Under the pieces are notes generated by a model. The model was given only the letters and a program-made list of their open reading frames with translations, was not told the DNA's origin and ran no database searches. Both the position numbers and the translations under genes were made by a program. DNA of 64,000 nucleotides from Bacillota bacterium (GTDB lineage Bacteria; Bacillota; Dethiobacteria; Dethiobacterales; Dethiobacteraceae), in contig QLUR01000006.1 in NCBI GenBank assembly GCA_018725565.1, positions 7,902-71,901 on the forward strand, written 5' to 3'. Shown here in pieces: positions 13,951-48,684 of the stretch (the first letter of the stretch is position 1; each line of letters starts with the position of its first letter).

Positions 13951-14451
13951 TTAAAGCCATTCCTCCACCATTTGGCGCATTTCCTGTTCCCCTAGCGCCC
14001 CGACACGGATCTGGCGGATGACACCATCACTGTCAAGCAGGAATGTTTTAGGGATAAAGCGCACTTCATAAAGCCGGCCAACCAGGCCGTCATCTTTCAG
14101 CACCGGAAAAGTATAGCCGTTTTGCGCAACAAACTCCCTGGCCAAAGCAGGCAGGTCGTTTACATTGACGGCAAGTACAACAAACCCATCTTGCCGCAGG
14201 TCTTCATAGAGCCGCTGCATTACCGGCATTTTCTCCCTGCAGGGCGGACAGGCAGCCGACCAAAAATTAAGCAACACCACCCGGCCCCGCAGCTCCCGAA
14301 GGCTGACACCGCCGCCGCTGTTCAAATAGCCCAGCGTAAAGTCCGGGGCTTCCCGCCCCAAAGTTAAACCGCTGCCACGCAGCTGCGACAGCAAAGGAAC
14401 AGCCAGAACCACAACAAGTATAGCCAATATGGCAGGCAGTAATTTTTTCAT
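13951..14451 (-). CDS. membrane-anchored thiol-disulfide oxidoreductase, TlpA/ResA family
   Basis: 166 aa, N-terminal TM/signal anchor, thioredoxin fold with WSAACPPCR active site. Confidence 0.85.
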   Translation of the reverse strand: MKKLLPAILAILVVVLAVPLLSQLRGSGLTLGREAPDFTLGYLNSGGGVSLRELRGRVVLLNFWSAACPPCREKMPVMQRLYEDLRQDGFVVLAVNVNDLPALAREFVAQNGYTFPVLKDDGLVGRLYEVRFIPKTFLLDSDGVIRQIRVGALGEQEMRQMVEEWL

Positions 14452-14475
14452 CCTGTCCTCCGGCTTGAGATTTTC

Positions 14476-15162
14476 TTAATATGTTAAAGTAGCCAAATGT
14501 GTCAGCAAGCCAAAAAACACGGCTATCCCGACAGCAACCATAAACAGGCCGAAAATACGTTGTATGTGCGGCAACCACACATTAAAGCGCCCGACCCAGC
14601 GCCCCGTCTGCTCCACCAGCAGCGCCGCCAGCAGATAAGGCAATGCCAGTCCCAAAGCAAAGGCGGCAAGCAACAGCGGTCCGCCGCCTGTTGCCGCCGT
14701 CAGCAGCAAAATGCTGGCCAGCGCAGGACCGATACAGGGTGTCCAGCCGGCGGCAAAAGCCATACCCATCAGCAAAGAGGTGCCCGGCCCGGCAGTTTTC
14801 GGCAGATAACGGACGCGCCGCTCTCTGCCCAGCAGTGCCGGTCTGAAAACACCAGCGAGATAAAGACCGAAAAAAATAATCACACTGCCCGCCAGACGCT
14901 GCAGCACAAGGCCCCAGGCAGCGAAAAACGCGGCAAACCAACTGGCCAGCAACCCCAGCAACAGAAAAACGAGACTAAATCCGGTCACAAAGTTTATGCT
15001 GTTAAACAGCGCCCTGTTTTTGACCGGCCTGCCATCTTCACCAGCAGCAGAGCTGCAAAGGAAGCCCAGGTACAGCGGCAACAACGGCAACTGGCACGGT
15101 GAAAAAAAAGAAACTATCCCTGCGACAAACGACACAAGGACTATCAGACTTCCCTGCTCCAT
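14476..15162 (-). CDS. ccdA: cytochrome c biogenesis / thiol-reductant transporter CcdA (DsbD family)
   Basis: 228 aa, 6 TM, FSPCQLPLLPLY and WTPCIGP motifs; adjacent to ResA-like gene. Confidence 0.85.
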   Translation of the reverse strand: MEQGSLIVLVSFVAGIVSFFSPCQLPLLPLYLGFLCSSAAGEDGRPVKNRALFNSINFVTGFSLVFLLLGLLASWFAAFFAAWGLVLQRLAGSVIIFFGLYLAGVFRPALLGRERRVRYLPKTAGPGTSLLMGMAFAAGWTPCIGPALASILLLTAATGGGPLLLAAFALGLALPYLLAALLVEQTGRWVGRFNVWLPHIQRIFGLFMVAVGIAVFFGLLTHLATLTY

Positions 15163-15194
15163 AATACTCCCTCCGGGTATAGGTATCCGTCTCT

Positions 15195-16658: not shown

Positions 16659-16952
16659 CTAACTGATGTATTTGCCGAGCAACCGCATGACTTCCTCGAC
16701 GAATTCTTCTCTTTCGCCTTCCGCGATCGTATTTTCCAGGCAACGGCGAAAATGGGTCTGAAAAACAATGACACCCGTTTTGTTTACAGCGGCTTTTACC
16801 GCGGCAATCTGCATCAAAACCTCGGCACAGGGTTGTTCATCGTCAATCATCTTGCGGATACCTCTGATTTGCCCCTCAATCCTGCGCAAACGGTTGATAA
16901 TCTGCCGTCGCTCCTGCATAACCGGCGCACCTGCCCCTTGCTGAATTCTCAT
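16659..16952 (-). CDS. CsoR/RcnR (DUF156) family metal- or persulfide-sensing repressor
   Basis: 97 aa, RLRRIEGQIRGIRKMI helix, Cys in PCAEVL plus H-x3-C in THFRRC (x-C-H-C fingerprint of Cu(I)-CsoR); GAGGAG SD. Confidence 0.85.
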   Translation of the reverse strand: MRIQQGAGAPVMQERRQIINRLRRIEGQIRGIRKMIDDEQPCAEVLMQIAAVKAAVNKTGVIVFQTHFRRCLENTIAEGEREEFVEEVMRLLGKYIS

Positions 16953-17185
16953 AAAATTATATCTCCTCTGTTAGCTTTTTACAACCTAAAAAAACAATAA
17001 AAAACCCCCCACTATGCCGTGGACCGTCAGTTTTGAACTGCTCTCCCCACAAGTGGGTGCCCTCCTGATTACTTTACAAGTCCTCCGCAGAGGCGTGTGC
17101 GCCGCAACCAGAGACAGGCTCCCCTAAACAAAGTGTTAGCTCAAAACTTTACGGGTAGTTCACAAACATAGCAGGGTGCTTTTGC
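16953..17185 (-). promoter_or_regulatory. ~230-nt structured 5' leader of csoR-like/mgtE operon (attenuator or riboswitch candidate)
   Basis: lies between a near-consensus promoter (17192-17220) and the csoR-like RBS; contains a long imperfect hairpin followed by U6AUUGU7 only ~36 nt before the start codon. Confidence 0.5.
16988..17075 (-). terminator. terminator-like hairpin + U-tract inside the csoR-like leader
   Basis: minus strand CACCCACUUGUGG...CCACGGCAUAGUGGGGGG followed by UUUUUUAUUGUUUUUUU (plus-strand A-run 16988-17004). Confidence 0.5.
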
Positions 17186-34372: not shown

Positions 34373-34846
34373 TTATCCTGCCGCTGCCGCTTCCTTCATT
34401 TTTTCGAGGATCTTTCGCAGCTCCACTTTATTTAGGTTTCCGTGATATTCGCCGTCAATCTCTGCGAGCGGGCCCAGTGCGCATGCGCCAAGGCAGTTTA
34501 CCGTTTCCAGGGTGTACTCGCCGTCTGCGGAAGTTTTTCCACGCTCCACGCACAAGCAGCGGGAAACCTCCTCCACAATTTCCTCGCTGCCGCGGACATG
34601 GCAGGCAGTTCCGGTGCAGACTGTCACTTTGTGGCGCCCGCGCGGTTCCAGGGAGAAAACCTTGTAAAACGTGACGATTCTATAAAGCTCCATCAGCGGT
34701 TTATTAAGCAGGACAGCCAGTTCGCGCAACACGGCTTCCGGCAAATAGTTGAAATGACTTTGAATGGCATACAACAGCTGGATTAGAGAACGATCATGTT
34801 CTTTCACCATGGCCGACAGATCCATTGGTTTACTAACTTTTCCCAT
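34373..34846 (-). CDS. NuoE/HydC-like thioredoxin-fold [2Fe-2S] subunit
   Basis: 157 aa, CTGTACHVRGS ... CLGACALGP cluster ligands. Confidence 0.85.
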   Translation of the reverse strand: MGKVSKPMDLSAMVKEHDRSLIQLLYAIQSHFNYLPEAVLRELAVLLNKPLMELYRIVTFYKVFSLEPRGRHKVTVCTGTACHVRGSEEIVEEVSRCLCVERGKTSADGEYTLETVNCLGACALGPLAEIDGEYHGNLNKVELRKILEKMKEAAAAG

Positions 34847-34867
34847 CGTATCACCTTTTCCCCACGT

Positions 34868-36457
34868 TTAGAGTCGTATGTCTAAAACGTCTTTTGCTTC
34901 CGCCCTGTCCAGCTCCATGATATAGGGGATGCCACTGATTTCGCTTGCTTCCCTGGTAATGGCGGCAATATCGTTGCGTGTCAGGTAGCCAAGAGCAAAC
35001 TTACGGCTTCCGCACATCAGCTGCCGCATGCCCTGAGCCAGGCGCTCATAGTAAGTAAAGAGGCCTAAAGCACCGGCAGGTATCTGCGCAAAGCGCTCCG
35101 CGCCGAAGTGAGCTTTCAATTCAGCGGCGGTGACAAACACTTCTTCCACACTGTTGCCGAAGCGCTCGACATAAACAGGCAGTTTCTTTTCATTAATTTT
35201 ATTTCCGATGGTTTTGCCGACCATGACCGCAGCTATGGGAGCCCGTGCCATACCGATGGCTTTGACGAAAGGCGCGCCTAAGGACAGCCCTTTGAAAATT
35301 TGATCCTCCATGGTAATGCCGCCGGCAAAAATAACATCCGGGACATACTCGCCCTTATCGGCCAAATATTTGCAGTATTCGTAGGTAAGCGAGTGCAGCT
35401 CAACAACCGGCACGCCCCATTCATTCATCATGCGCCACGGGCTCATGCCAGTGCCGCCGCCGGCTCCGTCAACGGTTAAATAATCAATTTTTGCCAGCGA
35501 GGCAAACCGGACCGCACGCGCTAAATCAACGGGACGATAAGCGCCGGTTTTCAATGTTATATATTTGGCGCCTGCAGCGCGCAGTTCTTCCACCCGGGCC
35601 AAAAACGATTCCAATTCAACCATACCAACACGGGAATGGCGCTCAAATTCTTTGAATGTTCCTCTTTTGAACGACTCAATGACCAGCGGATTTTCCGGAT
35701 CGGGCAAGACGACATACCCGCGTTTTTTCAGCAACTGCGCCTTGGCTAGGTCGTTAATTTTCACTTCACCGCCGATGTCCTTGGCGCCCTGCCCCCATTT
35801 AAGCTCCACGATTTCGACGCCCAATTCTCTGATGGCATATTCCTGCACGCCCAGACGGGTATCTTCAACATTGGCCTGGACAACTATGGCGCCGTAGCCG
35901 TCCTCCTGCCACTCCTGAAACAAGGAAACTCTCTTTTTTAAATCAACTGTCTCTATTACCCGGCCATTTCTTATGATTGCCTGCGGGTCCATGCCGACAA
36001 CATTTTCACCGATGGTTAAGCCGCAGCCGGAGATGGCGGAGCCGATGGCCAGTCCTTCCCAGTTTTGCTTAGCGACATTGGTAGACCCGATGCCGGGAAT
36101 CATAAAGGGCAGGCGCAACTTAATCCCTTTGTCGGCGCCTAATCTTGTTTCCAGATTAACAGCGGGGAAGATGGCTTTGTCGCTGTCAGCCTCAATGCCC
36201 ACAGCGCCAACGGCCGTCCCCATGATATTAAAGTGGGAATAATCTACAGGATAGTCTTTTTCCGAAGCCGTGGTAATAATGCCAAAGGGCTGCGGATAAA
36301 TGGTTTCATGGCCGCGATAGGCCGATTTGCCAATTTCACACATCCCTACGCAGCCGTCTATACAGGTGACACACATGCCGCTAAAGGGGCTGACTGATCC
36401 TTCCGTACGGTTTTTGGTTAATGTTGCGGCTGAAACATTTGGTCTTGAAATCGTCAT
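34868..36457 (-). CDS. stand-alone glutamate-synthase FMN-domain family protein (GltB domain-2 like)
   Basis: 529 aa, Cys-rich N-terminus CVTCIDGCVGMCEIG, TIM-barrel FMN region with DGAGGGTGMSPW and FAGGI motifs; no amidotransferase or GXGXG domain in the ORF. Confidence 0.75.
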   Translation of the reverse strand: MTISRPNVSAATLTKNRTEGSVSPFSGMCVTCIDGCVGMCEIGKSAYRGHETIYPQPFGIITTASEKDYPVDYSHFNIMGTAVGAVGIEADSDKAIFPAVNLETRLGADKGIKLRLPFMIPGIGSTNVAKQNWEGLAIGSAISGCGLTIGENVVGMDPQAIIRNGRVIETVDLKKRVSLFQEWQEDGYGAIVVQANVEDTRLGVQEYAIRELGVEIVELKWGQGAKDIGGEVKINDLAKAQLLKKRGYVVLPDPENPLVIESFKRGTFKEFERHSRVGMVELESFLARVEELRAAGAKYITLKTGAYRPVDLARAVRFASLAKIDYLTVDGAGGGTGMSPWRMMNEWGVPVVELHSLTYEYCKYLADKGEYVPDVIFAGGITMEDQIFKGLSLGAPFVKAIGMARAPIAAVMVGKTIGNKINEKKLPVYVERFGNSVEEVFVTAAELKAHFGAERFAQIPAGALGLFTYYERLAQGMRQLMCGSRKFALGYLTRNDIAAITREASEISGIPYIMELDRAEAKDVLDIRL

Positions 36458-36490
36458 CTGTTTCCCTCCCCCAAAAATATAGTATAATCT

Positions 36491-37159
36491 TTATTTTTGT
36501 TCACAGGCGACACAAGGGTCCATATAACACATTACATCGCTGAACTTATCATTGCATGGCGGGGCCGAATTAAGGCAGGCATTGCAAAGCGTTGTTTCCG
36601 CCTGCGGGCCTTGGCAGCGCGCCATGCAAACGGGACAAATGTACATGCAGCCGCCGCAAAGGCGACAGTCATCACTCTTTTTAGCGAATGCGGTGGTAAT
36701 TTTCCGCTGTTCTCCGCGGCTGACAAAATCAATGGCTTTGCCCTGCATTTGCTCCGAGCACATACGGACGCACAGCCCGCACAGGATACAGGTGTCATTT
36801 CTGGGGCGCATCCGCACCTGTGTAACATGGTGCTTGGAGGCCAGACACTGGATTGTTTTTGAACCGGGAGCTGTCGCCACATACATTTCCAGAAGAGTTT
36901 TTCTTACTTTCATGACCCTGTTTGAATGCGTCCGCACCACAAGCCCTTCTGTTGCCTTAAAATCACAGGAGGCCACCAGCTTGGCTTTAGGGGCGGCGCC
37001 GACTTCTACCACGCACAATCTGCACGCGCTGCCCGGACTTAACGCCTCATCGTTACAGAGCGTGGGGATTTCGATACCGTACGTACGGGCAGTCTCCAGC
37101 AGCGTGGTTCCTTCTTCCACCGCAACCTCCAGACCATTGAGAGTGAACGTAATCATCAT
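36491..37159 (-). CDS. NuoG/HydA-N-terminal-type ferredoxin subunit ([2Fe-2S] + [4Fe-4S] clusters)
   Basis: 222 aa, TFTLNG...CNDEALSPGSACRLCVVEV (plant-type 2Fe-2S), CILCGLCVRMC and CRLCGGCMYICPVC; no H-cluster or molybdopterin domain. Confidence 0.8.
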   Translation of the reverse strand: MMITFTLNGLEVAVEEGTTLLETARTYGIEIPTLCNDEALSPGSACRLCVVEVGAAPKAKLVASCDFKATEGLVVRTHSNRVMKVRKTLLEMYVATAPGSKTIQCLASKHHVTQVRMRPRNDTCILCGLCVRMCSEQMQGKAIDFVSRGEQRKITTAFAKKSDDCRLCGGCMYICPVCMARCQGPQAETTLCNACLNSAPPCNDKFSDVMCYMDPCVACEQK

Positions 37160-37166
37160 CTCACCC

Positions 37167-39047
37167 CTAACTTAAAAGCACTGCAGAAAACTTGCAGCTC
37201 TCAAGACAGATTCCGCACTTTTGGCACGCGTTGGTGTCAATTACATACAACTGCCCTTTTTCCCCGCTAATGGCAGATACAGGACAATTTTTGGCGCAAA
37301 CGCCGCAACCTTTGCAGTGCTCTTCAAGGATAGAATAGAAAATCAGGTCTTTGCAGACCCCTGCGGCACATTTTTTCTCCTCGATATGCTCTTTATACTC
37401 ATGGGCAAAGTAACGGATGGTTGACAGGACCGGGTTGGCCGCGGTTTGGCCCAGACCGCACATGGATGCGTCCGCCACCACTTCCGCCAAATCCAGCAAC
37501 AGCTCCATGCTTTGGGAATTACCTTGACCGGCCGTTATATCGTTTACCACATCCAGCATCCGCACTATCCCTTCACGGCAGGAAAAGCATTTACCGCAGG
37601 ACTCGTCTTTTAAAAAGCGCAAAAAGTACTTGGCGAGGTCCACGGCGCACGTTTTTTCGTCCAGCACAATCATCCCGCCGGACCCCATCATAGAACCGGC
37701 TTCCTTTAATTCCTCAAAGTCTGTCGGCATGTGAAGCTGTCCTGCGTCTAAACATCCGCCTGAGGGGCCGCCGGTCTGCACAGCTTTAAAGGCCCGGCCA
37801 CCCTGTATCCCTCCGCCGATACCAAAAATAATATCTTCCAGGGGTATGCCGATGGGAACTTCCACCAGACCTGTATTATTAACTTTGCCAGTTAAGCAGA
37901 ATATTTTCGTTCCTCCGGATTTGCCGGAGCCCAAGGCCGCATACTTCTCCGCGCCTAATTGAAAAATCAGCGGCACATTTGCCAATGTTTCCACATTATT
38001 AAGGACGGTAGGTTTTCCCAAATAACCGCTTTCCACTAAATGAGGCGGTTTCTGTCGCGGTTCACCCACTTTAGCTTCCAGTGAAGCGATCAGGGCCGTA
38101 GATTCCCCGCAGATAAACACCCCGCCACCCATGAAAATGGAAATGTTAAACGAATGGCCGCTCCCGAGAATGTCATGACCTAACAGCCCCTGCTCCAGCG
38201 CCTGAGCAATAGCTTTTTGCAGTCTTTTCATGGCCAGCGGATATTCCGCCCGGACATAGACCAGCCCTTCCGTGGCCCCGGTGGCATACCCTGCTATGAT
38301 CATGCCTTCTAACACAGCATGTGGGTCGCTTTCGAGGAGCGAGCGGTCCATGAATGCGCCGGGGTCTCCCTCATCAGCGTTGCAGACGATATACTTCACA
38401 TCGCTTTGCCGGTGCAAAGCCTCCTGCCATTTTACGCCAGTTGAAAAGCCGGCGCCGCCGCGGCCGCGCAGCTTAGCCGACGACACCTGCTGCACGACGG
38501 CTGCCGGTGTCATCTGCAGAACTTTGGCCAGTGACTGGTAGCCGCCGCTTGCCAGGTAGTCGGCGATCTCCTCAGGATCTATCCTGCCGGCATTTTGCAG
38601 GACAAGCCTGGTTTGCTGCCTGTAAAACGGGACCTCGTCCTGCGTCGCATAACGCGTTCCCTCAGGCGATGTGTAGAGCAAACGCTCTACCAGTTCACCC
38701 CGTCGCAAGGTCTTCTCAATAATTTGCCGGACATCGTCCGGCCTTACATGGATATAAAAAATGCCAGCCGGCTCAATGATAACAAGCGGCCCCTGCTGGC
38801 AAAAGCCGTGGCAGCCGCTGCAGATAATGCCCGTTTCATGTCTTTCGCTAAAAACTACGTCGGCGCCGCTTTGACCAAGCAATTTCTGAAACTGCTCAAA
38901 TACTTTCAGTGAACCGTTGATCACACAGCCGGTTCCCGCACAAACTATGACCCTGTTTTGCACCAGCCCCCGTTTATTGAGATAATATTCTCTTAGTTGC
39001 TGAAGATGTTCCGCGTTTTTAATACGCACGTTTATCCCCGTACTCAT
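37167..39047 (-). CDS. NuoF/HydB-like NADH-binding flavoprotein with extra N-terminal [2Fe-2S] and C-terminal 2x[4Fe-4S] domains
   Basis: 626 aa, CAGTGC...CSGCHGFC, GRGGAGFSTGVKW, SCGKCFSCREG, CKGCGVCAKNCP, CQKCGICLESC. Confidence 0.88.
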   Translation of the reverse strand: MSTGINVRIKNAEHLQQLREYYLNKRGLVQNRVIVCAGTGCVINGSLKVFEQFQKLLGQSGADVVFSERHETGIICSGCHGFCQQGPLVIIEPAGIFYIHVRPDDVRQIIEKTLRRGELVERLLYTSPEGTRYATQDEVPFYRQQTRLVLQNAGRIDPEEIADYLASGGYQSLAKVLQMTPAAVVQQVSSAKLRGRGGAGFSTGVKWQEALHRQSDVKYIVCNADEGDPGAFMDRSLLESDPHAVLEGMIIAGYATGATEGLVYVRAEYPLAMKRLQKAIAQALEQGLLGHDILGSGHSFNISIFMGGGVFICGESTALIASLEAKVGEPRQKPPHLVESGYLGKPTVLNNVETLANVPLIFQLGAEKYAALGSGKSGGTKIFCLTGKVNNTGLVEVPIGIPLEDIIFGIGGGIQGGRAFKAVQTGGPSGGCLDAGQLHMPTDFEELKEAGSMMGSGGMIVLDEKTCAVDLAKYFLRFLKDESCGKCFSCREGIVRMLDVVNDITAGQGNSQSMELLLDLAEVVADASMCGLGQTAANPVLSTIRYFAHEYKEHIEEKKCAAGVCKDLIFYSILEEHCKGCGVCAKNCPVSAISGEKGQLYVIDTNACQKCGICLESCKFSAVLLS

Positions 39048-39192: not shown

Positions 39193-39221
39193 TTGACTTT
39201 CGGAAAAGGAAGAATTATGAT
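39193..39221 (+). promoter_or_regulatory. sigma-A promoter of the CoADR-fusion gene
   Basis: TTGACT (39193-39198) - 17 nt - TATGAT (39216-39221). Confidence 0.65.
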
Positions 39222-39227
39222 TAAATC

Positions 39228-39248
39228 AGATACCCTGCCAGGGTATCT
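39228..39248. promoter_or_regulatory. perfect 21-bp palindromic operator candidate (CsoR/CstR-type ATACCC...GGGTAT)
   Basis: AGATACCCTG-C-CAGGGTATCT, 10+1+10 perfect inverted repeat starting 7 nt after the -10 hexamer. Confidence 0.7.
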
Positions 39249-39302
39249 GCGATGGATTGTTAGGAATCCGGTATGAAGAAATGTTTTTAAGGAGTGAAAG
39301 AA

Positions 39303-41795
39303 ATGTCAGGAAGAGTGCTTATTGTCGGTGGTGTAGCTGGGGGGGCCAGCGCCGCGGCCAGACTCAGGCGGCTGGATGAGGATGCGGAAATAATCATTTT
39401 CGAAAAAGGGGGGTATATTTCTTTTGCTAACTGCGGCCTTCCCTATTATATCGGAGAAACAATCAGGGAAAAGTCGGCACTGATTGTCCAGACGCCCGAA
39501 AGAATGAGATCCATGTTCAACATTGAAGTCAGGCTGTACCACGAAGTTACCGGCGTTAATCCTGCACAAAAGACAATCGCGGTTAAAGACCTGAGTAACG
39601 GAACCGCATATGAAATGACTTATGACCGGCTGATCCTTTCCCCGGGCGCAAAGCCCCTGCGCCCGCCGATTCCCGGTATCGACAGCCCCGGCATTTTTAC
39701 CCTGCGCACCATCCCCGATACCGATGCTATCAAGGGATATCTGAGCAAGCAAGCAGTTAAGAGTGCGGTTATTGTTGGCGGCGGCTATATCGGACTGGAA
39801 ATGGCGGAAAATCTTCATGCTTTGGGGCTGAAGGTCTCGGTAGTGGAAAAAATGGGACAGCTAATAGGCACAATGGACTACGATATGGCCGCATTGGTTC
39901 AGGGGCACCTGCTGGCTCAGGGAGTACACCTTTATTTAAGTGACGGCGTCACAGAGTTCCGGCAAAACAATAGCGGCCTGGAAGTCATCTTGGAAAGCGG
40001 TAAAACAATTGACTGCCAAATGGTCTTACTATCCATCGGTGTCAGGCCTGACACAGCCTTTCTGGCCGGAAGCGGCCTGGCGCTGGGAGAGCGTGGCGGA
40101 ATTAAGGTAAATATGCGTCTGCAGACTTCCGACCCCCATATCTACGCCATTGGGGACGCCGCAGAAACAACCGATTTTGTCAGCGGCGAGCAGGCACTCA
40201 TCCCTTTGGCCGGCCCTGCGAACAAGCAAGGCCGTATCGTTGCCAATAATATCGCCGGCCGCGCCTCTGTTTATAACGGCACCCAAGGCACAGCAATCGC
40301 CAAGATTTTTGACCTGGCGGTGGCCACAACAGGTCAAAACGAAAAAACATTACAACTAAGAGATGTAAAGTTTTACACCACGGTGACCCACGCCAAATCC
40401 AATGCCGATTACTACCCCGGCGCCTTGCCGATGACCGTCAAGCTGCACTACACACCTGACGGCCTGCTGCTGGGAGCGCAAATTGTCGGTTACAGCGGTG
40501 TCGATAAGGCTATGGACACCTTGGCCTCGGCGTTGCGCTTTAAACGGACAGTCTATGACCTGCAGGAACTGGAGCTTGCCTATGCACCGCCTTTTTCCAC
40601 CGCTAAAACACCGGTCAACGTGGCCGGTCTGGTGGCCGGCAACAGGCTCGATGGCACTATGGACGTGGCCTTGTGGTCTGAAATTGACGCCCTGAACGCC
40701 TCTGCCACTATTCTGGATGTAGGAGAAAAGGGAGAAAGGGAGCTGGGATCTATCGCCGGCTCCGTTCACATCCCGCTTGGGCAGTTGCGTGCCAGGATAA
40801 ACGAATTGGACAAAGGCAAGGAAGTCGTTGTTTACTGCCAGATAGGCCTAAGGGCATACCTGGCAGCGCGGTTGCTGAGTCAAAAAGGTTTCAGGGCCAG
40901 AGTGCTTTCCGGCGGCTTCAGACACTATAAAGCGGTTAAACAGTCGGAAGACGACCTGCAAAAACAAAATTACCGTTTTGGAGATGAAGAAATGTCTTTT
41001 CAGGACCTAACTAAAGAAGATATTTACAGCAGCGAAAGCAGCTCGGCTGTCCCCAGGCAGGCCGGCGATACAGTCCTTCTTAATGCCTGCGGCCTTTCCT
41101 GCCCCGGTCCGATTGTGGAAGTAAATAAAAAAATGTCACAGCTAAAAAGTGGCGACGTCCTGGAAGTGCTCGCTTCCGATCCCGGCTTTGCCAATGATAT
41201 TAAAGCCTGGTGCGCAAAAACCGGGCATACTCTGTTAAGTACCGGCAAAGAAGGCTTGTTCTTTAAGGCTAGAATAGCCAAGGGGCTTCCCAGTCAGGTC
41301 GCCTCAGGGACTGCGGTACCGCTTCCGCAAAACAAAACTATCATTGTTTTCAGCGGTGACCTTGATAAGGCCATTGCCTCCTTTATAATCGCCAACGGCG
41401 CTGCCGCCATGGGCAGAAAAGTTACCATGTTCTTTACCTTTTGGGGACTCAATATCCTGCGCAAGCCGGCAGGCAAAGCCCCGCAAAAAGACCTTCTGGC
41501 CAGGATGTTCGGCATGATGATGCCCAGAGGCAGCAGGAAGCTAGGGTTATCGCGCATGAATATGCTGGGTATGGGGCCGAAAATGATACGCATGGTCATG
41601 GGCATGAAAAACGTCGACTCACTGGAAAACTTGATTCAGATGGCCAAAGATAACGGTGTCGTGCTGATGGCTTGCCAGATGTCAATGGATGTCATGGGCA
41701 TCAAGCACGAAGAACTGATTGAAGGCGTGGAAATAGGCGGTGTAGCCACCTACCTCGGAGAAGCTGAAGACTCCAATATTAATCTGTTTATTTAA
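39303..41795 (+). CDS. four-domain fusion: CoA-disulfide/persulfide reductase (pyridine nucleotide-disulfide oxidoreductase) + rhodanese + TusA + DsrE/DsrF-like
   Basis: ORF 39294..41795; VLIVGGVAGGASAA, redox Cys SFANCGLPYYIG; rhodanese loop VVVYCQIGLRA; TusA CGLSCPGPIVEV; C-terminal KTIIVFSGDLDKAIASFIIANGAAAMG...MACQMSMDVMG; ATG 39303 8 nt after AGGAG. Confidence 0.85.
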   Translation: MSGRVLIVGGVAGGASAAARLRRLDEDAEIIIFEKGGYISFANCGLPYYIGETIREKSALIVQTPERMRSMFNIEVRLYHEVTGVNPAQKTIAVKDLSNGTAYEMTYDRLILSPGAKPLRPPIPGIDSPGIFTLRTIPDTDAIKGYLSKQAVKSAVIVGGGYIGLEMAENLHALGLKVSVVEKMGQLIGTMDYDMAALVQGHLLAQGVHLYLSDGVTEFRQNNSGLEVILESGKTIDCQMVLLSIGVRPDTAFLAGSGLALGERGGIKVNMRLQTSDPHIYAIGDAAETTDFVSGEQALIPLAGPANKQGRIVANNIAGRASVYNGTQGTAIAKIFDLAVATTGQNEKTLQLRDVKFYTTVTHAKSNADYYPGALPMTVKLHYTPDGLLLGAQIVGYSGVDKAMDTLASALRFKRTVYDLQELELAYAPPFSTAKTPVNVAGLVAGNRLDGTMDVALWSEIDALNASATILDVGEKGERELGSIAGSVHIPLGQLRARINELDKGKEVVVYCQIGLRAYLAARLLSQKGFRARVLSGGFRHYKAVKQSEDDLQKQNYRFGDEEMSFQDLTKEDIYSSESSSAVPRQAGDTVLLNACGLSCPGPIVEVNKKMSQLKSGDVLEVLASDPGFANDIKAWCAKTGHTLLSTGKEGLFFKARIAKGLPSQVASGTAVPLPQNKTIIVFSGDLDKAIASFIIANGAAAMGRKVTMFFTFWGLNILRKPAGKAPQKDLLARMFGMMMPRGSRKLGLSRMNMLGMGPKMIRMVMGMKNVDSLENLIQMAKDNGVVLMACQMSMDVMGIKHEELIEGVEIGGVATYLGEAEDSNINLFI

Positions 41796-45073: not shown

Positions 45074-45874
45074 TTATTCGCAGGAAGGCTGTTCATAGTT
45101 TTCCGGCAGCAGTTCAGTAATGGCAGGATGTTCTCCGCAAACGGCGCAAGACGGACGGCGGCCGATTCTGACCTCTGTAAATTCCATGGCGGACGCGTCA
45201 AAAACAAGCAGGCGCCCAAGTAAAGGCTCACCGGCGCCAAGCAGCCACTTGAGCGCCTCCGCCGCCTGAATGAGGCCGATTATGCCAGGCACCACATTAA
45301 ACACTCCCGCCTCCTGACAGGTTGGCACAGCACCGGGAAGGGGGGCGGCTGGAAACACACACCGGTAGCAGGGTGCCCGCGGCGGATAAAAAACGGAGGC
45401 GTGGCCGTCAAAGCGCAGGACACTTCCGTAAAAGTAGGGCTTGTTGTATAGCACCGCCGCGTCGCTGACCAGGTAGCGGGTGATAAAGTTGTCACAGCCG
45501 TCAATAACCAGGTCATATTGGGGCAGGATTTGACTGATTGACCCGGCTGTGGCTGTATATTGATAGGGAATGACAGTCACACCCGGGTTGAGCAGCGCTA
45601 TTTTATTTTTGGCCGATTCCACCTTGAGCAGTCCGACATCCGCCGTGGAGTGGATAAGCTGGCGCTGCAGGTTGGAGAGGTCCACCCGGTCAGGATCCAT
45701 GATGCCAAGCGTTCCCACGCCGGCGGCGGACAGGTATTGGGCCGCCACCGAGCCAAGCCCTCCGGCGCCGATCAGCAGCACTTTGGCGGCCAGCAGTTTT
45801 TCCTGGCCGCGGCCGCCTATTTCCGGGAGCAGAAGGTGTCGGCTGTAACGGAAAATTTGCTCGTCAGTCAGCAT
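45074..45874 (-). CDS. thiF: ThiF/MoeB-family adenylyltransferase
   Basis: ORF 45074..46081 trimmed to ATG 45872-45874 (MLTDEQIFRYSRHLLLPEIG...LLIGAGGLGS); two CxxC pairs (CYRC, CAVCG). Confidence 0.85.
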   Translation of the reverse strand: MLTDEQIFRYSRHLLLPEIGGRGQEKLLAAKVLLIGAGGLGSVAAQYLSAAGVGTLGIMDPDRVDLSNLQRQLIHSTADVGLLKVESAKNKIALLNPGVTVIPYQYTATAGSISQILPQYDLVIDGCDNFITRYLVSDAAVLYNKPYFYGSVLRFDGHASVFYPPRAPCYRCVFPAAPLPGAVPTCQEAGVFNVVPGIIGLIQAAEALKWLLGAGEPLLGRLLVFDASAMEFTEVRIGRRPSCAVCGEHPAITELLPENYEQPSCE

Positions 45875-45875
45875 T

Positions 45876-46115
45876 TTATTCACCACCGCATTTTTCAACA
45901 TATAACAAGTATGTATCCTCATCCAGCCGATCAAGCGAAAGAATTTTGTGGCCGCCGCAGGCCAGGCTGCGCGGCACGTTTTTGGCCGCCTCGCCGGCGG
46001 CAAGATGTACCTCCAAAATGTCGCCGCCCGCCAATTCTTCAAGCGCCAGCAAAGCCCTGACCAGTGTGACGGGGCAGGCATCGGCGGTTACATCAAGCCT
46101 CTTCTTCGGCTGCAC
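45876..46115 (-). CDS. TusA/SirA-like sulfur-carrier protein
   Basis: ORF 45876..46169 trimmed to GTG 46113-46115 (6 nt after AAGGAGGG); LDVTADACPVTLVRALLALEELAGGDILEV, i.e. TusA fold with CPVT in place of the usual CPxP. Confidence 0.65.
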   Translation of the reverse strand: MQPKKRLDVTADACPVTLVRALLALEELAGGDILEVHLAAGEAAKNVPRSLACGGHKILSLDRLDEDTYLLYVEKCGGE

Positions 46116-46342
46116 GCACTTCCCTCCTTGCGCCAGTAAGCGGCGCAATCTTATTTTATCATTAAACAAAAATAATTACAGTGACTTTTTATTGAAAACG
46201 CAGAGTGAACCTGCGCTTTCCCAATGACGCCCGGCAGCGCACGCTGGCAATAATTTCCCATAGCCAGGTTTGACGAATTATGTTAAAATCAAGGTGTGTT
46301 GCTGCCAATTTTCACTAATTTTCGACCAAAGAGGTGACTTGC

Positions 46343-48526: not shown

Positions 48527-48540
48527 CATATAATAAAACA

Positions 48541-48684
48541 CACGTTGCTAGGGGCGCCGGCAGGCTGAGAAAGGGATTTCCCTTTACCCTTGGAACCTGA
48601 TGTGGGTAATTCCACCGTAGGGAAGCAACCGACCTGCATCTTTCCATGATGCAATAAAGCTGACCTGCAGGTCGGCTTTTGAAT
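48541..48684 (+). promoter_or_regulatory. TPP (THI-box) riboswitch with terminator expression platform
   Basis: P1 GTTGCT(48544-49)/AGCAAC(48624-29); core GGGGCGCCGGCAGGCTGAGAAAGGG...ACCCTTGGAACCTGATGTGGGTAATTCCACCGTAGGGAAGC; terminator AAAGCTGACC-TGCA-GGTCGGCTTTT (48656-48680); TATAAT at 48529-48534 upstream; thiS follows. Confidence 0.9.

Follow-up and report, generated by a model that had tools for sequence, protein, structure and literature searches.

A 64,000-nucleotide stretch of contig QLUR01000006.1 (assembly GCA_018725565.1), here called the window, from a Bacillota bacterium of the family Dethiobacteraceae, carries a gene in which a flavoprotein module of the CoA-disulfide reductase type (CoADR; CoA, coenzyme A), a rhodanese, a TusA and a DsrE-like domain are joined in a single polypeptide. 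A preliminary description of this DNA had placed the four domains in one 830-residue open reading frame (ORF) at 39303-41795. These coordinates are correct, and translation in frame 1 gives one unbroken frame of 830 codons with a single terminal stop, while the opposite strand is crowded with stops. The description had named stop codons between the domains as the finding that would speak against a fusion; none occurs in the frame of the given sequence. An AGGAG Shine-Dalgarno sequence lies 8 nt upstream of the ATG at 39303. The ORF listing also offers a GTG start at 39294, but because this codon overlaps the Shine-Dalgarno sequence and the homologues begin with MxKKVLIVGG, 39303 is the better start. 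The gene is preceded by an intergenic region of 255 nt and appears to be monocistronic, since the next gene is convergent.

All the domains pass the Pfam gathering cut-offs (Table 1), with Pyr_redox_2 (residues 4-298, 223 bits), Pyr_redox (residues 155-230) and Pyr_redox_dim (residues 332-434) in the reductase module, followed by Rhodanese, TusA and DrsE_2. The reductase module has the motifs GGVAGG at 9-14 and GGGYIG at 159-164, with Cys44 in SFANCGLPY. Each domain had also been said to keep its reactive cysteine, and this holds throughout: the four motifs quoted, FANCGLPY (Cys44), YCQIGLR (Cys512), SCPGP (Cys600) and MACQMS (Cys791), are present, and their cysteines show no exception in an alignment of full-length homologues (128 of 128). 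Cys44 and Cys512 align to the matching positions of Bacillus anthracis CoADR-RHD and of the Shewanella NADH-dependent persulfide reductase (Npsr), and the catalytic role of their equivalents is known from the literature. Cys600, in LNACGLSCPGP, aligns to the GLRCPEP cysteine of Escherichia coli TusA (LDALGLRCPEP), which we take to be Cys19, and Cys791 aligns to the cysteine in ACQxS (ACQLS) of 3pnx, a DsrE-like structure. A further cysteine of the TusA domain, Cys596, forms a CxxxC pair with Cys600 (ACGLSCPGP, 41088-41102) and is found in 94.5% of the four-domain homologues. It may be a resolving cysteine; neither E. coli TusA nor the stand-alone TusA that comes first in the Priestia flexa cst operon has an equivalent. 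Cys637 of the same domain is present in 84% of the homologues. The alignment also shows an invariant Glu182 where the second Rossmann strand ends, a feature that we take, from general knowledge of Rossmann folds, to mark a preference for NADH, which suggests that the enzyme uses this cofactor.

Table 1. Features of the window considered here; positions are counted from its first nucleotide.
Feature	Position	Strand	Basis
Genes for a secreted TlpA/AhpC-TSA-type thioredoxin-fold protein (13951-14451) and a ccdA-like DsbD_TM membrane protein (14476-15162)	13951-15162	-	Library matches
Second operator-like site ATACCCGGAGGGAGTAT (1 mismatch), after TTGACA-17-GATAAT, overlapping the Shine-Dalgarno sequence of the ccdA-like gene	15164-15180	-	Genome-wide scan
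CsoR-family (PF02583) gene, candidate repressor, Cys42/His67/Cys71	16659-16952	-	Sole PF02583 match in the 98%-complete genome
Sigma-70-type promoter TTGACT-17 nt-TATGAT	39193-39221	+	10/12 consensus matches
Perfect 11+1+11 palindrome CAGATACCCTG-C-CAGGGTATCTG, candidate CsoR/CstR-type operator	39227-39249		Arms 100% complementary
830-residue fusion ORF: CoADR-type reductase, rhodanese, TusA, DsrE-like (DrsE_2)	39303-41795	+	Translation, Pfam, alignments
FAD/NAD(P)H pyridine-nucleotide-disulfide oxidoreductase module, residues 4-445, redox Cys44 (codon 39432-39434)	39312-40637	+	Pfam, TIGR03385, Foldseek, pLDDT about 90
Rhodanese domain, residues 463-543, Cys512 (codon 40836-40838), loop CQIGLR	40689-40931	+	Pfam, 52.7 bits; alignment to 3icr, 3nta, 8a56
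Acidic/Ser-rich linker between rhodanese and TusA, predicted disordered, residues 558-585	40974-41057	+	pLDDT <50; alignment without consensus here
TusA domain, residues 593-660, Cys600 (codon 41100-41102) in CPxP; also Cys596, Cys637	41079-41282	+	Pfam, 73.6 bits; alignment to E. coli TusA (1dcj/3lvj)
DsrE-like DrsE_2 (PF13686) domain, residues 676-829, Cys791 (codon 41673-41675) in ACQMS	41328-41789	+	Pfam, 215 bits; 3pnx, E = 1.7e-31

An AlphaFold2 model built on a 44-sequence alignment had a mean predicted local distance difference test score (pLDDT) of 81.5, with values around 90 in the reductase and rhodanese and 62-85 in the TusA and DsrE-like domains; residues 558-585 and 664-674, where it fell below 50, are predicted to be flexible tethers. 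Among solved structures, residues 3-545 matched B. anthracis CoADR-RHD (3ICR; E = 7e-172, 49% identity), Shewanella loihica Npsr (3NTA; E = 1e-161, 46-47% identity) and the Enterococcus faecalis CoA-persulfide reductase EfCoAPR (8A56; E = 4e-144, 44% identity), and Foldseek placed the model on all three with TM-scores of 0.92-0.95 (0.94 for 3ICR); the Pyrococcus horikoshii CoA persulfide/polysulfide reductase is homologous as well. Judged by the E-values to 3icr and 3pnx, the domain match is far beyond chance. The fusion resembles the CoADR-RHD/Npsr/CoA-persulfide reductase (CoAPR) group end to end over residues 3-545 and has the features that define it, a flavoprotein module with a single redox cysteine, in SFANCGLPY, and a fused rhodanese retaining its active-site cysteine. 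The solved and characterized enzymes, however, end at the rhodanese, whereas the fusion continues for about 285 residues (linker, TusA, linker, DsrE-like domain). No entry of the Protein Data Bank aligned past about 563 columns of the 830-residue model in the Foldseek search, and therefore no solved structure holds the four-domain form. In EfCoAPR both Cys42 and the rhodanese Cys508 are needed, and Cys508 alone is persulfidated in cells; the active-site cysteines are about 27 Å apart across the dimer, and bound CoA has been proposed as a swinging arm between them (PMC9405070).

Homologues of the fusion are mostly named 'CoA-disulfide reductase' at NCBI and JGI, and TIGR03385 is its best NCBIfam match, as would be expected of a CoADR or of a general thiol/disulfide-stress enzyme in which the carrier domains serve as accessories for handling disulfides or CoAlation and not as a sulfane-sulfur relay. 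The TIGR03385 score is nonetheless 475.3 bits against a cut-off of 578.8, and the two other CoADR equivalog models, NF007123 (378.9 against 458) and NF010037 (357.2 against 394), are not reached either; because all the CoADR equivalog scores remain under their cut-offs, we do not class the fusion as a plain CoADR in spite of the names given to its homologues. The DsrE2 equivalog NF047629 is likewise not reached (87 bits against 210). The nearest characterized relatives bearing a rhodanese are persulfide reductases, and sulfur-carrier chemistry is favored by the fact that the cysteines of the rhodanese, TusA and DsrE domains are conserved without exception. A housekeeping CoADR role is further weakened by a separate CoADR/NADH-oxidase-type paralogue elsewhere in the genome that has neither rhodanese nor carrier domains. 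Overall, a disulfide-stress enzyme of this kind seems to us an unlikely account of the fusion. The paralogue (C18:40352-41674, locus L047) is 36% identical over residues 6-446, has the motif SYGACGLPYY and adjoins a cysteine-rich 244-residue protein resembling an Fe-S protein.

The architecture itself is common. A protein-cluster search yielded at least 8000 scored homologue candidates, and the best 120 of these, from Thermoanaerobacterium, Halothermothrix, Orenia, Acetivibrio, Caloranaerobacter, Defluviitalea and others, all have the same Pfam set at 54-91% identity. In a sample of 301 genomes spread evenly over the phylum, 37 (37/301) contained an end-to-end match, and the two-domain CoADR-RHD occurred in many more; of three partial matches that were inspected, two were an 875-residue four-domain protein with a long TG-rich linker and a divergent four-domain form of 794 residues, and the four-domain form is found in roughly 12-14% of the sampled genomes. 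The third partial match was a 648-residue three-domain CoADR-rhodanese-TusA protein without DsrE (L058, G300:C1:940000-942600), with the motif CGLCCPGP, in a genome that also holds a full four-domain copy.

Two members of the family had already been described. Identical four domains were reported for Pcar_0429 in the 2012 genome paper of Pelobacter carbinolicus, with the proposal that persulfide passes from the rhodanese to TusA/DsrE, sulfide is released and the protein is re-reduced through NADH and FAD (PMC3543383). In Bacteroides fragilis, the four-domain gene BF638R_0572 is upregulated 50-fold in a mutant of the MarR-type regulator BmoR, it is co-induced with an exported thioredoxin, and its loss results in a greater sensitivity to diamide (PMC6158253); both the co-induction and the diamide phenotype speak for a role in disulfide stress. 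As far as the published descriptions can be compared, the fusion shares with both proteins the four domains in equal order in one polypeptide, and its bounds (4-442, 463-543, 593-660 and 676-829) are nearly those published for BF638R_0572 (14-440, 462-540, 589-657 and 671-825; PMC6158253). The B. fragilis gene differs in being controlled by a MarR-type regulator, whereas in the Dethiobacteraceae genome the operator is of the CsoR type and the regulator gene unlinked. Neither paper contains enzymology, and a full-text literature search found no kinetic or structural study of the four-domain form. The novelty implied for this form in the preliminary description therefore does not hold, since the design is common, already annotated and accompanied in print by the same mechanistic hypothesis for Pcar_0429, and functional work on it, of which the description was not aware, exists in the B. 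fragilis genetics (PMC6158253). The fusion is an ordinary further example of a widespread and already described enzyme design.

The carrier domains have their counterparts in the cst and yrk operons. In the best tblastn segment, the C-terminal part of the fusion is 56% identical to a P. flexa locus (L011) holding a stand-alone YrkE-like DsrE protein, in an operon with cst operators that comprises cstR (x-C-x-C), tusA, the stand-alone DsrE_2 gene, rhodanese, tusA-rhodanese, rhodanese-persulfide dioxygenase (PDO), tusA and tauE; the Bacillus counterpart of this operon is regulated by sulfane sulfur (PMC9918477). The fusion shares its rhodanese, TusA and DsrE-like set and its operator type with Staphylococcus aureus CstA and with the Bacillus-Priestia yrkD(cstR)-tusA-yrkE(dsrE)-rhodanese systems, and it has what a CstA-type relay calls for, a TusA fold with the CPxP cysteine and a DsrE-like domain with a conserved cysteine. 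Those systems, however, feed O2-dependent PDO/sulfide:quinone oxidoreductase (SQR) and sulfite export, whereas the fusion couples its carriers to a reductase that depends on NAD(P)H, and among the genes neighboring it there is neither PDO nor SQR nor TauE. CoAPR is under CstR control in Enterococcus and Streptococcus (PMC9405070; bioRxiv 10.1101/2021.07.25.453692), as are TusA/DsrE carriers in Bacillus and in Staphylococcus CstA (PMC9918477). Judging from its sequence, the fusion unites these two kinds of components, CoAPR and TusA/DsrE carriers, which are CstR-controlled elsewhere in Firmicutes.

The promoter of the fusion gene is the sole strong forward-strand match in the intergenic region, and a few nucleotides past its -10 box lies the core ATACCCTGCCAGGGTAT (39230-39246) of the perfect palindrome. 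The half-sites and spacing of this core equal those of the Streptococcus mitis cst operator ATACCCTTATGGGGTAT (ATACCC-N5-GGGTAT), which has been used in CstR binding assays (bioRxiv 10.1101/2021.07.25.453692). The pattern occurs once in the window, where 0.00 matches were expected (100 shuffles), and twice as an exact copy in the whole genome, the copy at the fusion gene being the only intergenic one; the other is contained in an ORF of helicase/restriction type on contig C34 and was put down to chance. The palindrome is identical at two metagenomic loci (L013/L014) holding a 91% orthologue with the same neighbors. It recurs as ATACCTATACAGGGTA at a third locus (L015), right after a TTGACA/TACAAT promoter and before a 63% orthologue in a different context, and in a genome of the same family (G241) ATACCTATGGGGGGTAT precedes a two-domain CoADR-RHD gene. 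The pseudo-palindromic, GC-rich ATACC-N7-GGTAT operator typical of CstR regulons is found at the promoter and is conserved in the orthologue loci, and, as for the CstR repressors of S. aureus, E. faecalis and Streptococcus pneumoniae/S. mitis, ATACCC-N5-GGGTAT lies over the promoter of a CoAPR-type gene. EfCoAPR is itself regulated by CstR, from which its gene is derepressed by sulfide (PMC9405070). The cst-type operator fits a response to reactive sulfur and counts against a general disulfide-stress role. Of the two functions suggested in the preliminary description, detoxification of sulfide or persulfide and sulfur assimilation, the latter finds little support here.

The candidate repressor is encoded 22 kb from the fusion gene, between a 6S RNA gene and mgtE. 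Its Cys42, His67 and Cys71 form the copper-type x-C-H-C fingerprint, which is kept in the orthologues of G241 and of a genome of the same genus (G102), and its nearest solved structures are Geobacillus CsoR and InrS, with S. pneumoniae CstR scoring lower. CstR regulons have an x-C-x-C repressor that is usually encoded adjacently, whereas the protein found here is of the C-H-C type, unlinked, and scores higher against copper and nickel sensors than against the pneumococcal CstR; because of this fingerprint and of the distance of its gene, beside mgtE, we call it CsoR-family and not CstR. The 6S RNA gene, at 17002-17180(-) between aspS and the CsoR-family gene, matches Rfam RF00013 with 93.9 bits; a riboswitch 5' of the latter was considered and discarded, the RNA being this unrelated gene.

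The copper-type fingerprint and the likeness to Geobacillus CsoR are what a copper regulon would predict, with a genuine copper-sensing CsoR binding the operator and the fusion repairing, for example, copper-damaged thiols or Fe-S clusters. Such a regulon is very improbable in our view, since the csoR-like gene is beside neither copA nor copZ, no operator of the CsoR type was found upstream of copZ, nor at copA, whose upstream region ends at the contig edge, and Pro41 stands where the tyrosine of MtCsoR copper allostery would sit, as judged by its position before the first cysteine. Moreover, the genes behind operator-bearing promoters in this bacterial family have to do with sulfur and thiols (CoADR-RHD, YeeE and ccdA). 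Upstream of copA (an HMA-domain P-type ATPase gene on the 2730-nt contig C4) there is an AT-rich perfect palindrome, CTGATATACTTAAGTATATCAG, which is not of the CsoR operator type.

When the whole genome was scanned for the succession of strong sigma-70 promoter, operator (≤1 mismatch) and ORF, two sites only were returned, one at the fusion gene and one at the ccdA-like/TlpA-like operon. The latter site is also found before ccdA in two relatives, identical in G102 and as ATACCCCGAGGAGGTAT in G241, with the half-sites kept and different inner bases. The ccdA-tlpA operon is possibly a second operon of the fusion gene's regulon, and a CcdA/thioredoxin-fold pair behind an operator-bearing promoter would also suit a thiol-stress enzyme. 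In G102 (L041 and L042, respectively G102:C20 and G102:C19) and G241 (L044 and L045, respectively G241:C67 and G241:C30) the same arrangement of promoter and operator precedes a Zn-ribbon/YeeE-YedE sulfur-transport pair, NapH-like Fer4_5 membrane proteins, one of which carries a fused FAD/NAD module resembling FNR, and a short ORF that could not be assigned. From the distribution of these sites, the CsoR-family protein may govern a regulon of several operons, and, given the genes behind the operator type (CoADR-RHD, YeeE and ccdA), this regulon would point to sulfur/thiol stress and not to copper. The regulator does not appear to be dedicated to the fusion gene, because G102 keeps it and has the operator type before other genes. 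Co-occurrence of regulator and fusion was tried as a discriminator and rejected: in G102 the regulator is 87% identical, and there is no full-length match to the fusion, the best hit being weak (E = 1.3e-94).

In most other lineages, the orthologue stands beside another type of regulator gene. At eight loci (L006, L008, L022, L023, L025, L027, L031 and L032) it lies directly 3' of a gene for an ArsR-type regulator of about 100 residues with two conserved cysteines, located in RLCIV and in xxCL just before the helix-turn-helix, a pair unlike that of SqrR/BigR; the nearest solved relatives of this regulator are PagR, followed by the persulfide sensors SqrR and BigR, and YgaV. The placement of the same enzyme under at least three unrelated repressor families (CsoR-, ArsR- and MarR-type) fits a stress-inducible role.

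Considering domains, conservation and operator together, we regard the protein as a repressor-controlled enzyme that reduces sulfane sulfur (persulfide/polysulfide) with NADH and has its carrier relay built in, a reading to which we assign a probability of roughly 60%. The enzyme would be a soluble flavoprotein of the CoADR-RHD/Npsr/CoAPR group with TusA and a YrkE-like DsrE on flexible C-terminal tethers, and its domains and retained cysteines fit the idea of a flavin reductase to which a sulfur relay is tethered. Polysulfide, thiosulfonates and persulfides, whether of low molecular weight or on proteins, would donate sulfane sulfur that forms a cysteine persulfide on Cys791 and/or Cys600 and is then handed to the rhodanese Cys512. 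From Cys512 it would reach Cys44 and the FAD, probably carried by a tightly bound CoA that serves as a swinging arm, a mechanism already proposed for EfCoAPR and Npsr. There, NADH would reduce the sulfane sulfur, with release of H2S. A CsoR-family repressor sitting on the cst-type palindrome over the transcription start would block expression until reactive-sulfur or thiol stress lifts the block, and in a strict anaerobe without the O2-dependent SQR/persulfide-dioxygenase route the enzyme would serve the reductive clearance of sulfane sulfur.

Several points weigh against this reading. The direction of sulfur flow is not readable from sequence, the AlphaFold2 model is uninformative on the docking of the mobile domains, and the literature search found no activity, ligand or expression data for any four-domain member. 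The sole CsoR-family protein has the copper-type x-C-H-C in place of the x-C-x-C of proven CstRs and, its gene being 22 kb away, we infer its pairing with the operator at 39227-39249. The MarR-controlled homologue of B. fragilis, with its disulfide-stress phenotype, fits general thiol homeostasis equally (PMC6158253).

The same chemistry could also serve energy metabolism, if the fusion were a cytoplasmic NADH:S0/polysulfide/thiosulfate reductase through which fermenting cells shed excess electrons, as proposed for Npsr, for the Pyrococcus NSR/CoA polysulfide reductase and for Pcar_0429. The homology to Npsr and to the P. horikoshii enzyme, the explicit proposal of Pcar_0429 as a possible terminal S0 reductase (PMC3543383), the binding of thiosulfate by Metallosphaera DsrE/TusA homologues (PMC4175335) and the YeeE/YedE sulfur transporter under the same operator in a relative are all consistent with such a dissimilatory role, which differs from stress-induced clearance of sulfane sulfur in physiology only. 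Repression at an operator type known from detoxification operons argues in the opposite direction, as does the monocistronic gene, with which no transporter or respiratory partner is grouped in the window, and the neighbor genes vary among the orthologue loci examined. We consider a fermentative electron sink improbable.

TusA is a known hub of biosynthetic sulfur, and the persulfide sulfur of the fusion could be mobilized through it for making thiamine or molybdopterin or for thiolating tRNA; a ThiF gene, next to which stands a TusA gene, and a thi operon controlled by a thiamine pyrophosphate (TPP) riboswitch do lie 3-9 kb downstream. These are, however, separate transcription units on the opposite strand which already own a TusA, and this neighborhood is missing at L015, L016 and other orthologue loci. 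Persulfide delivery needs no H2S-releasing reductase, and repression at a stress-type operator is ill-suited to a housekeeping pathway. The chances of a biosynthetic function therefore appear very small.

Taken alone, the fusion matters little, being one further copy of a widespread and already annotated design. The four-domain family, present in roughly one in eight of the sampled genomes of the phylum and in gut Bacteroides, merits biochemistry, and probably gives strict anaerobes their oxygen-independent means of clearing reactive sulfur. This locus is well suited to showing which regulator senses which signal, since the gene is monocistronic, the promoter of textbook form and the operator perfect, with only one repressor as candidate, and its specific value lies in the combination of a cst-type operator with an unlinked CsoR-family candidate of copper fingerprint, in the possible ccdA-tlpA target and in the family-specific Cys596-x3-Cys600 pair. 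A broader conjecture, which we put forward tentatively and hold to be possible but rather doubtful, would join these elements. The C-H-C CsoR-family protein would be the reactive-sulfur/thiol-stress sensor of an unlinked regulon comprising the four-domain reductase and CcdA/thioredoxin, and in relatives YeeE and NapH-like proteins. The four-domain enzyme would be a self-contained protein-persulfide reductase, whose tethered DsrE and TusA (Cys596-x3-Cys600) reach macromolecular substrates inaccessible to the two-domain CoAPR. If this were true, a C-H-C sensor of reactive sulfur or thiol stress would constitute a new functional class of CsoR repressors.

As for the surroundings of the fusion gene, a divergent NuoEF/GltS-like operon occupies 34373-39047, and genes for an AEC transporter and CPA2 follow downstream. 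The neighboring operons were considered as partners and set aside as unrelated, since they recur only at L013/L014 (91% orthologue) and are missing at L015 and L016 (63% and about 61% orthologues). Further downstream, a TPP riboswitch at 48540-48640 precedes thiG/thiH, and the stand-alone TusA gene at 45876-46169(-) lies immediately upstream of the ThiF-family gene at 45074-46081(-); the long ThiF ORF call overlaps the TusA gene, and translation of ThiF probably begins at an ATG further along.

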